Positions 34,403 through 64,000 of a stretch of DNA of 64,000 bases are shown piece after piece. A model generated the notes under the pieces. It saw only the letters and a list, made by a program, of their open reading frames with translations. It made no database searches and was not told the origin of the DNA. Origin of the DNA: Escherichia phage vB_EcoM_G4507. The stretch is from sequence record NC_054919.1; one strand, 5' to 3'. The number at the start of each line of letters is the position of its first letter. Within the stretch, counting starts at the first letter, position 1. Made by a program: the position numbers and the translations under genes.

Positions 34403-34651
34403 TTACTTCAGTGTTACCACAAAGTGACGAACTGCTTTTCGTGCAGCAGAAGCCAGAGGCTTAGCATACTTAAGTTCATCTTTTTCCTGAAGCTCAGCGG
34501 CTAATGCAGTTTGAGCAGGATTTAGATGTTTGAAATAACGCAGGATTTCAAGAGCTTCGGCTTCAACATCAATAGATGCGCCATAGTTTTCGTGACCATT
34601 ATTCCATGCGTTTCGTTGCAGTTCAAGAGCGTGTTGTAATTGTTTAATCAT
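34403..34651 (-). CDS. rIII: lysis-inhibition accessory protein RIII
   Basis: 82-aa ORF between gene 31 and the 30.x array; length and position match T4 rIII as recalled; TATAAATA upstream at 34781-34788. Confidence 0.8.
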   Translation of the reverse strand: MIKQLQHALELQRNAWNNGHENYGASIDVEAEALEILRYFKHLNPAQTALAAELQEKDELKYAKPLASAARKAVRHFVVTLK

Positions 34652-37618: not shown

Positions 37619-38836
<1,218 letters not shown>

Positions 38837-38840
<4 letters not shown>

Positions 38841-39067
38841 TTATTTTTCTCAACCAATGATTGAATATAATCATGCAGGTCTTTAGATGCTTTACCCCAC
38901 TTATTTTGATATTCATTTTTGAGATTAGCACGTGATTGAGCTAATAAAACATCATTAGTTGGAGGTAAAGATTCTAATCGCTGAATCTGGCGTCCATAAA
39001 TCATTGCAGCCATCTCGGATTCATAAATCAATCCTTTGAGATGTTCAAATTGATGCCATGAAATCAT
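38837..39067 (-). CDS. hypothetical 76-aa protein
   Basis: ORF coupled to its neighbours. Confidence 0.5.
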
Positions 39068-39363
39068 TTACATTTATCCTCTTTTAACTCTTGACGATAA
39101 TAACATATCATAGTTTTCTGGTCATGTACATATCGTTTTACATCATTAAGCCAAATACGAAATTCCTGGGAATCTTCAAATGGCATACCGACCCAAGCTT
39201 TACCATCAATAACTTTAACTTGCCAAGATAATTTAGCTTCGTCATATGACTTTATTTGTACAGGCCAATTAGGATGAATTGTTTCTTTCTTTACTTCTAG
39301 AGGCTTTGTCGAACAACCAACTAGAAGACCAATAGATAATATTACTGCTGATAGTTTAATCAT
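39064..39363 (-). CDS. pseT.2: outer-membrane spanin (lipoprotein, Rz1 equivalent)
   Basis: 99 aa; signal peptide with lipobox MIKLSAVILSIGLLVGC-S; adjacent to the i-spanin-like gene. Confidence 0.7.
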   Translation of the reverse strand: MIKLSAVILSIGLLVGCSTKPLEVKKETIHPNWPVQIKSYDEAKLSWQVKVIDGKAWVGMPFEDSQEFRIWLNDVKRYVHDQKTMICYYRQELKEDKCK

Positions 39364-39713
39364 TTAGAAAGGTCCTGGATGTCTTCTGCTAACTTGTTGA
39401 AGGAGTTGTTAATTTGTTTTTCAACCAATCCTGGCTTATGAGCCACCACATCCGCCTTCTTTGCGTCTTTGCGCAGTTTTTCATTTTCACGCTCAATAGC
39501 AGCAATTGCCTCACGATTTTTATTATTCATCGCATCAATATAATTATACTGAATTCGCAAATTATTTAATGCTAAAGCGTTTTCATTGGCTGTTTTTGTA
39601 ATTTCGGTAACTGATGTTTCTAATCTTTCTACCTTATTTTTTAAAATAATAGATGTTCCGCCAAATGCTATTACAAGTAATAGCAATCCAGCTGTAAAAT
39701 TACTTACATGCAT
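39360..39713 (-). CDS. pseT.3: inner-membrane spanin (Rz equivalent)
   Basis: 117 aa; N-terminal transmembrane helix GLLLLVIAFGGTSIIL followed by coiled-coil-prone periplasmic region; coupled to the o-spanin gene. Confidence 0.7.
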   Translation of the reverse strand: MHVSNFTAGLLLLVIAFGGTSIILKNKVERLETSVTEITKTANENALALNNLRIQYNYIDAMNNKNREAIAAIERENEKLRKDAKKADVVAHKPGLVEKQINNSFNKLAEDIQDLSK

Positions 39714-40214: not shown

Positions 40215-40268
40215 TCCTCATGTTATGCCAGTAAGACTACTATAACACAACACGAGGGACTTGTAAAC
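40215..40268 (-). promoter_or_regulatory. 54-bp early-promoter plus leader cassette, copy 2 (upstream of alc)
   Basis: Identical to 24961-25014 except one transition; GTTTAC -35 begins 3 nt after the rnlA stop; GAGGA SD 4 nt before the alc ATG. Confidence 0.6.
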
Positions 40269-46250: not shown

Positions 46251-47266
46251 CATTATGTTCAGATAAGGTCGTTAATCTTACCCCGGAATTATATCCAGCT
46301 GCATGTCACCATGCAGATCAGACTATATCTCCAACTTGTTAAAGCAAGTTGTCTATCGTTTCGAGTCACTTGACCCTACTCCCCAAAGGGATAGTCGTTA
46401 GGCATTTATGTAGAACCAATTCCATTTATCAGATTTTACACGATAAGTAACTAATCCAGACGAAATTTTAAAATGTCTAGTTGCATCTGCTGCACAATCA
46501 AAAATAACCCCATCACATGAAATCTTTTTAATATTACTAGGCTTTTTACCTTTCATCTTTTCTGATATTTTAGATTTAGTTATGTCTGAATGCTTATGAT
46601 TAAAGAATGAATTATTTTCACCTGAACGATTTCTGCATTTACTACAAGTATAAGCAGAAGTTTGTATGCGAACACCGCACTTACAAAACTTATGGGTTTC
46701 TGGATTCCAACGCCCGTTTTTACTTCCGGGTTTACTGTAAAGAGCTTTCCGACCATCAGGTCCAAGTTTAAGCATCTTAGCTTTAACAGTTTCAGAACGT
46801 TTCTTAATAATTTCTTCTTTTAATGGATGCGTAGAACATGTATCACCAAACGTTGCATCAGCAATATTGTATCCATTAATTTTAGAATTAAGCTCTTTAA
46901 TCCAAAAATTTTCTCGTTCAATAATCAAATCTTTCTCATATGGAATTTCTTCCAAAATAGAACATTCAAACACATTACCATGTTTGTTAAAAGACCTCTG
47001 AAGCTTTATAGAAGAATGGCATCCTTTTTCTAAATCTTTAAAATGCCTCTTCCATCTCTTTTCAAAATCTTTAGCACTTCCTACATATACTTTATTGTTT
47101 AAAGTATTTTTAATCTGATAAATTCCGCTTTTCATAAATACCTCTTTAAATATAGAAGTATTTATTAAAGGGCAGTCCTACAATTTAGCACGGGATTGTC
47201 TACTAGAGAGGTTCCCCGTTTAGATAGATTACAAGTATAAGTCACCTTATACTCAGGCCTCAATTA
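46251..47266 (-). ncRNA. self-splicing group I intron of td (1016 nt) carrying the I-TevI ORF
   Basis: Exon 1 ends CTTGGGT; intron begins UAAUUGAGGCCUGAGUAUAAGGUGACUUAUACUUG... and ends ...AUG. Boundaries give exactly 1016 nt and a uninterrupted td reading frame. Confidence 0.9.
46398..47135 (-). CDS. I-TevI: GIY-YIG homing endonuclease I-TevI (intron-encoded)
   Basis: 245 aa; MKSGIYQIKNTLNNKVYVGSAKDFEKRWKRHFKDLEKGCHSSIKLQRSF... with zinc finger CKCGVRIQTSAYTCSKC and C-terminal DNA-binding region. Confidence 0.93.
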   Translation of the reverse strand: MKSGIYQIKNTLNNKVYVGSAKDFEKRWKRHFKDLEKGCHSSIKLQRSFNKHGNVFECSILEEIPYEKDLIIERENFWIKELNSKINGYNIADATFGDTCSTHPLKEEIIKKRSETVKAKMLKLGPDGRKALYSKPGSKNGRWNPETHKFCKCGVRIQTSAYTCSKCRNRSGENNSFFNHKHSDITKSKISEKMKGKKPSNIKKISCDGVIFDCAADATRHFKISSGLVTYRVKSDKWNWFYINA

Positions 47267-59743: not shown

Positions 59744-63863
<4,120 letters not shown>

Positions 63864-63894
63864 TTTGAATAAATATCCTTAAAAGGAGGGTCTA

Positions 63895-64000
63895 TGGCAG
63901 CACCTAGAATATCATTTTCGCCCTCTGATATTCTATTTGGTGTTCTAGATCGCTTGTTCAAAGATAACGCTACCGGGAAAGTTCTTGCTTCCCGGGTAGC
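63895..64000 (+). CDS. t: holin T, N-terminal fragment (3' end outside window)
   Basis: MAAPRISFSPSDILFGVLDRLFKDNATGKVLASRV... after AAGGAGG Shine-Dalgarno; synteny after gene 38. Confidence 0.8.

Follow-up and report, generated by a model that had tools for sequence, protein, structure and literature searches.

In the 64,000-nucleotide stretch of the Escherichia phage vB_EcoM_G4507 genome analyzed here (NC_054919.1), hereafter called the window, a tightly packed run of ORFs occupies the minus strand between 37.6 and 41.4 kb. Two of these ORFs, at 39360-39713 and 39064-39363, had been read as a two-component spanin pair in an initial annotation made without database searches, and both are indeed present on the minus strand at these positions. 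The locus comprises the following features:

39704-39713, minus strand: 10 nt shared by the 3' end of alc and the 5' end of the i-spanin gene (…TTATGCATGTAA), seen in the sequence and annotated likewise in T4.
39360-39713, minus strand: i-spanin gene, orthologue of T4 pseT.3, 117 aa, assigned by identity to T4, PHROG, hydropathy, AlphaFold2, and a heptad scan.
39360-39363, minus strand: 4-nt overlap (ATGA) between the i-spanin stop and the o-spanin start, read directly from the sequence.
39064-39363, minus strand: o-spanin gene, orthologue of T4 pseT.2, 99-aa precursor, assigned by identity to T4, PHROG, the lipobox pattern, and alignment.
38837-39067, minus strand: orthologue of pseT.1, 76 aa, whose start overlaps the o-spanin stop by ATGA; 74/74 identical to T4 PseT.1 and matching phrog_2347.
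38520-38840, minus strand: 106-aa ORF (ORF106) of the RB32ORF217c / phrog_2364 family, overlapping the genes at both ends by ATGA; phrog_2364 match at E 1.2e-58.

The part of the window between 37500 and 40400 was compared with a phage collection by megablast. It displays 99.9% DNA identity across the whole query to vB_EcoM_G10400, a Tequatrovirus, and it matches 549 phage records, nearly all of them Tequatrovirus (T4-like) phages of Escherichia, Shigella, and Yersinia. The window is Tequatrovirus genomic DNA. In the T4 reference record NC_000866, the gene order is alc, pseT.3 (Rz-like spanin), pseT.2 (Rz-like spanin), pseT.1, and pseT, and the synteny of these genes is identical in vB_EcoM_G4507. 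Thus, the placement of the pair between pseT and alc, already proposed from the sequence, matches the T4 record, with alc (Pfam PF17527, E 7.6e-92) as the upstream neighbor and pseT (PNK) on the downstream side. All genes of this stretch are annotated as "hypothetical protein" in the vB_EcoM_G10400 record; other phage records name the two spanin ORFs "Rz-like spanin", "spanin Rz", or "outer membrane lipoprotein Rz1".

The two spanin genes are adjacent and co-oriented, with the i-spanin gene upstream, as in spanin pairs of the separated class. At their junction, TCT AAA TGA overlaps ATG A, and an AGGA motif stands 9 nt upstream of the o-spanin ATG. The pair had been described as translationally coupled, non-overlapping, and of the separated type. 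The coupling and the type hold, but the genes do overlap, by the 4 nt of this junction. An overlap of 8 bp is still classed as separated, T4 being the paradigm of the class (Kongari et al. 2018, PMC6139136). Between 38520 and 39713 on the minus strand, five consecutive junctions overlap, from alc/pseT.3 through ORF106/pseT; apart from the 10-nt overlap with alc, all are of the ATGA type, including pseT.2/pseT.1, pseT.1/ORF106, and ORF106/pseT.

Sequence features of the two proteins

The product of the upstream gene is identical to T4 PseT.3 at 115 of 117 positions (E 1e-84) and matches phrog_739, "Rz-like spanin", over its full length (E 7.8e-37). Its sole strongly hydrophobic segment covers residues 6-24 (FTAGLLLLVIAFGGTSIIL), with a best 19-residue Kyte-Doolittle window of 2.24, which bears out the single N-terminal transmembrane helix initially attributed to this ORF. 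The protein contains no Cys. Membrane and lipoprotein features were judged by hydropathy and pattern matching only, for this protein and for its partner.

The periplasmic part had also been described as prone to form a coiled coil, and the structural predictions agree with this description. A single-sequence AlphaFold2 model (mean pLDDT 88) shows one long helix at residues 5-91 and a second one at residues 94-116, with a break at P94-G95. A crude heptad scan of residues 26-53 reveals an a/d core V-L-V-I-A-N-L-L, whose score was reached by 34 of 2000 shuffled sequences. Both results are in agreement with the published description of PseT.3 as a two-helix protein with coiled-coil propensity in the first helix only (PMC6139136).

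The short N-terminal tail of the protein, MHVSN (window 39699-39713, minus strand), includes neither Lys nor Arg, and the periplasmic flank of the hydrophobic segment reads KNKVER. Therefore, the positive-inside rule alone gives no prediction of an N-in/C-out orientation. Lys or Arg is present in the N-tail of the homologues from RB69, AP1, and pf16. By analogy, an N-in/C-out (type II) topology of the vB_EcoM_G4507 protein would be implied by the T4 experiments (PMC6139136).

The product of the downstream gene is identical to T4 PseT.2 at 97 of 99 positions (E 9e-75) and matches phrog_812, also "Rz-like spanin", over its full length (E 4.5e-43). The lipobox LLVGC reported in the initial annotation is found again as a match to the PROSITE PS51257-type lipoprotein pattern (MIKLSAVILSIGLLVGC; lipobox LVGC within …LLVGC), with Cys17 as the lipobox cysteine. 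It is followed by Ser-Thr, and since Ser rather than Asp occupies position +2, sorting to the outer membrane is expected by the Lol rule. Two further cysteines are located at positions 87 and 98. In an alignment of six PseT.2 homologues, including those of T4, RB69, Erwinia phage Cronus, Aeromonas phage AP1, and Pseudomonas phage pf16, the lipobox Cys, C87, and C98 are invariant at identities down to 30%. In T4, RB69, Cronus, AP1, and pf16, the product of the gene directly upstream of the o-spanin gene bears a hydrophobic segment near its N-terminus and can be aligned with PseT.3.

By tblastn, the o-spanin is found in 1245 phage records, 496 of which hold it at 90% identity or more. The idea that these are chance ORFs was rejected on the basis of this conservation. 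Neither the spanins nor the small ORFs that follow them are covered by a Pfam or NCBIfam model, the matches obtained being sub-threshold noise only (Crescentin rod, DUF4446, Lpp-type signal).

Small ORFs, transcription, and other lysis genes

Two small ORFs had been noticed between the spanins and pseT, at 38520-38840 and 38837-39067, where T4 has one (pseT.1). This count is confirmed; the ORF at 38837-39067 is pseT.1 itself, and the sole ORF additional to T4 is ORF106. In T4, which lacks it, the pseT.1 stop abuts the pseT start, and the two genomes differ here by a clean indel the size of one gene. This indel is bounded exactly by two AAATGA-type junctions, which suggests, from the sequence, the gain or loss of a whole gene by recombination at these short repeats. 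ORF106 is 100% identical to the RB32 ORF, which likewise adjoins pseT and bears the label RB32ORF217c in a related record (H45), and a 78-aa homologue, RB69ORF231c, is also located between pseT.1 and pseT in RB69. Matches to ORF106 occur in 702 phage records (tblastn), and about 449 records hold it at 80% identity or more. Compared roughly with the 496 records holding an o-spanin at 90% identity or more, this figure indicates that T4 is apparently in the minority without the ORF. ORF106 is thus common among T-even phages but missing in T4, and its absence there may explain the lack of genetic study.

A large protein search placed homologues of ORF106 in 44 clusters, none of them with a Pfam domain; most of the clusters bear no source name, and those that do are all labeled as T-even-type Escherichia/Shigella phages or as E. 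coli/Shigella records. Its product is predicted to be a soluble four-helix bundle, modeled confidently by alignment-based AlphaFold2 (pLDDT 87.9, pTM 0.78), residues 23-34 forming a disordered loop. A sequence search of the PDB gave no match at E <= 1. With Foldseek, the model retrieved only generic four-helix bundles from the PDB (FAT domain, PsbQ), all at E > 1, and only its own uncharacterized homologues from BFVD, those of fHe-Yen9-01 and RB69 (RB69ORF231c). The best Kyte-Doolittle windows of PseT.1 and of the 106-aa protein are 0.28 and 0.60, respectively, and neither protein displays a signal peptide or transmembrane segment. No evidence tying ORF106 to the lysis system was found.

Upstream of alc, one candidate regulatory element was identified:

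40239-40267, minus strand: candidate T4-early-type sigma-70 promoter in the 61-nt gap between rnlA and alc, recognized by consensus match only.

This candidate consists of GTTTACA, a 17-nt spacer, and TG-n-TATAGT, agreeing with 10 of 12 consensus positions in addition to the extended TG. A scan of the minus strand from there through pseT found no terminator-like site, and the element is the likely source, judging from its sequence and position, of an alc-pseT.3-pseT.2-pseT.1-ORF106-pseT transcript. The late-promoter motif TATAAATA was not found on the minus strand between 39713 and 51747, that is, over the 12 kb upstream of the spanins, and the nearest MotA-box pattern upstream of them stands at 46346. 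With neither motif found close to the spanins on their upstream side, a late (TATAAATA) or middle (MotA-box) promoter at that place was rejected. The spanins are probably made from prereplicative transcripts along with alc and pseT, well before lysis, as far as the promoter motifs indicate.

Two other genes related to lysis are found in the window:

63894-64000, plus strand: 5' end of the holin gene t, cut by the end of the window; 35/35 identical to the N-terminus of T4 T.
34406-34651, minus strand: rIII, a lysis-inhibition accessory gene located 4.4 kb from the spanins; 82/82 identical to T4 RIII, with the T4 annotation.

The holin gene had been reported far from the spanins, with its start at 63895. 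The distance is borne out, as t starts 24.2 kb from pseT.3, but the start itself is corrected by one nucleotide, to 63894. In T4, 24.4 kb separate pseT.3 (135781) from t (160221), so that the spacing observed in vB_EcoM_G4507 is the ordinary one for T4. The statement that the window holds no endolysin agrees with the search made with T4 E, which gives zero tblastn matches in the window; in T4, e lies at 66.5 kb, outside the span that the window covers. The lysis-control gene rIII, although within the window, had not been mentioned in the initial annotation. The dispersal of the lysis genes that it did propose is therefore upheld, with the spanins far from t and no e in the window. This dispersal is textbook T4 organization since the T4 spanin genes have been described as being near neither t nor e (Kongari et al. 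2018, PMC6139136).

The gene preceding t, at 63075-63863 on the plus strand, encodes a 262-aa tail-fiber adhesin of the T2/T6 gp38 type (phrog_2056, E 1e-108). The T4-type gp38 assembly chaperone has no tblastn match in the window. Together, these results point to a receptor-recognition arrangement of the T2 type and not of the T4 one.

Role of the pair in lysis

The function of the T4 pair has been established experimentally. Together, T4 pseT.3 and pseT.2 restore lysis by complementation in lambda RzamRz1am (Kongari et al. 2018, PMC6139136). The PseT.2 mutants C87S and C98S and the double mutant are lysis-defective, PseT.3 makes no disulfide dimer, and a reducible disulfide dimer of PseT.2 is seen only with PseT.3 present (PMC6139136). 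The near-identity of the vB_EcoM_G4507 proteins to T4 PseT.3 and PseT.2, taken with these experiments, supports the two-component spanin pair first proposed from the sequence. The two ORFs are almost certainly the orthologues of T4 pseT.3 and pseT.2 and, as such, the two-component spanin of a Tequatrovirus, with a probability of about 0.97. No contradiction of this assignment was found.

The mechanism envisaged for vB_EcoM_G4507 draws on this near-identity and on work with lambda Rz/Rz1. PseT.3 would enter the inner membrane via residues 6-24, its long helical domain reaching into the periplasm. The lipoprotein precursor of PseT.2 would be acylated and cleaved at Cys17 and, having Ser and not Asp at +2, would be delivered by the Lol system to the inner leaflet of the outer membrane. 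Binding of the periplasmic domains of the two proteins would then yield a periplasm-spanning complex threaded through the peptidoglycan mesh, and Cys87 and Cys98 would form intermolecular disulfides between o-spanin subunits, stabilizing the complex covalently. Such complexes would be inert while the murein is intact. After the triggering of holin T and the degradation of the wall by endolysin E, whose gene is not in the window, the spanin complexes would be freed and would destroy the outer membrane, most probably by fusion with the inner membrane, by which lysis would be completed.

In the lambda system, spanins stay inactive until the peptidoglycan is degraded. Early spanin synthesis would be tolerable for this very reason, and it fits a spanin function as long as intact peptidoglycan keeps the proteins inactive. 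The same expression pattern could nevertheless be read in another way. Indeed, the genes stand in the prereplicative block, coupled to alc and behind an early-type promoter match, with no late-promoter motif within 12 kb upstream, as might be expected of membrane or periplasmic proteins having a mainly early, non-lytic role (for example, envelope remodeling, superinfection exclusion, or resistance to lysis from without), in which case the spanin activity seen in the lambda assay would be secondary. This explanation is given next to no weight, as the T4 proteins fully replace Rz/Rz1 and cysteine mutations abolish lysis (PMC6139136), and evidence for any other role was not found.

A further question is whether the spanin function extends to the neighboring genes. 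The ATGA overlaps chain pseT.3, pseT.2, pseT.1, and ORF106 together, pseT.1 follows pseT.2 in both T4 and RB69, and the RB69 homologue of ORF106 occupies the same place, so that the four genes might form one functional module in which pseT.1 and ORF106 encode accessory spanin parts, e.g. regulators or chaperones. Such a module is extremely unlikely. The pair pseT.3 and pseT.2 alone is enough for lysis in the lambda system (PMC6139136), T4 is entirely devoid of ORF106, and the downstream genes differ in Erwinia phage Cronus, Aeromonas phage AP1, and Pseudomonas phage pf16. Moreover, ATGA overlaps link genes throughout this block, up to and including pseT. The small proteins, having no signal peptide or transmembrane segment, should be cytoplasmic and thus away from the periplasmic domains of the spanins. 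A looser connection, in which PseT.1 and the 106-aa protein influence the timing of lysis or the amount of spanin produced, or in which the spanins, being made early, have a second, pre-lysis role, is also considered very unlikely.

The reading of the two ORFs as a T4-type two-component spanin is thus retained. For T4, it is already published that the pair acts as a spanin, that its architecture is separated, that its cysteines are essential, and that t, e, rI, rIII, and pseT.2/pseT.3 are scattered over the genome. The arrangement found in the window is this canonical, published T4 organization and no peculiarity of vB_EcoM_G4507. The spanin assignment betters the annotation, the closest record having "hypothetical protein" for these genes, and otherwise matters little.

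Comparison with the T4 and lambda spanins

T4 PseT.3 and PseT.2 have the same lengths as the proteins of vB_EcoM_G4507 (117 and 99 aa) and are 98% identical to them. Both pairs share the transmembrane segment, the lipobox, Cys87, and Cys98, and both phages display the 4-nt overlap, the upstream overlap with alc, the pseT.1 neighbor, and a distance of ~24-25 kb to t. PseT.3 differs from its T4 counterpart by two substitutions, H26N and F108L (T4 residue first). PseT.2 differs by V29I, written in the same way, and by position 86, where vB_EcoM_G4507 has Ile and the T4 record an ambiguous residue (X). Compared with T4, the locus includes one additional gene, ORF106, between pseT.1 and pseT.

The Rz/Rz1 spanins of lambda follow the same two-component logic, with a type II inner-membrane protein and an outer-membrane lipoprotein, and they are functionally interchangeable with the T4 pair in complementation (PMC6139136). 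There is no useful sequence similarity between them and the vB_EcoM_G4507 proteins, apart from a weak PHROG cross-match (phrog_214, E 3e-06). Their genetic organization also differs: lambda Rz1 is embedded in Rz in the +1 frame, within a lysis cassette that includes S and R, whereas in vB_EcoM_G4507 the two genes are separate and lie far from the holin and endolysin genes. Periplasmic cysteines are present in lambda Rz, whereas PseT.3 has no Cys at all. Finally, lambda Rz1 is proline-rich and unstructured, whereas PseT.2 is predicted to be structured and possesses two essential cysteines (PMC6139136).
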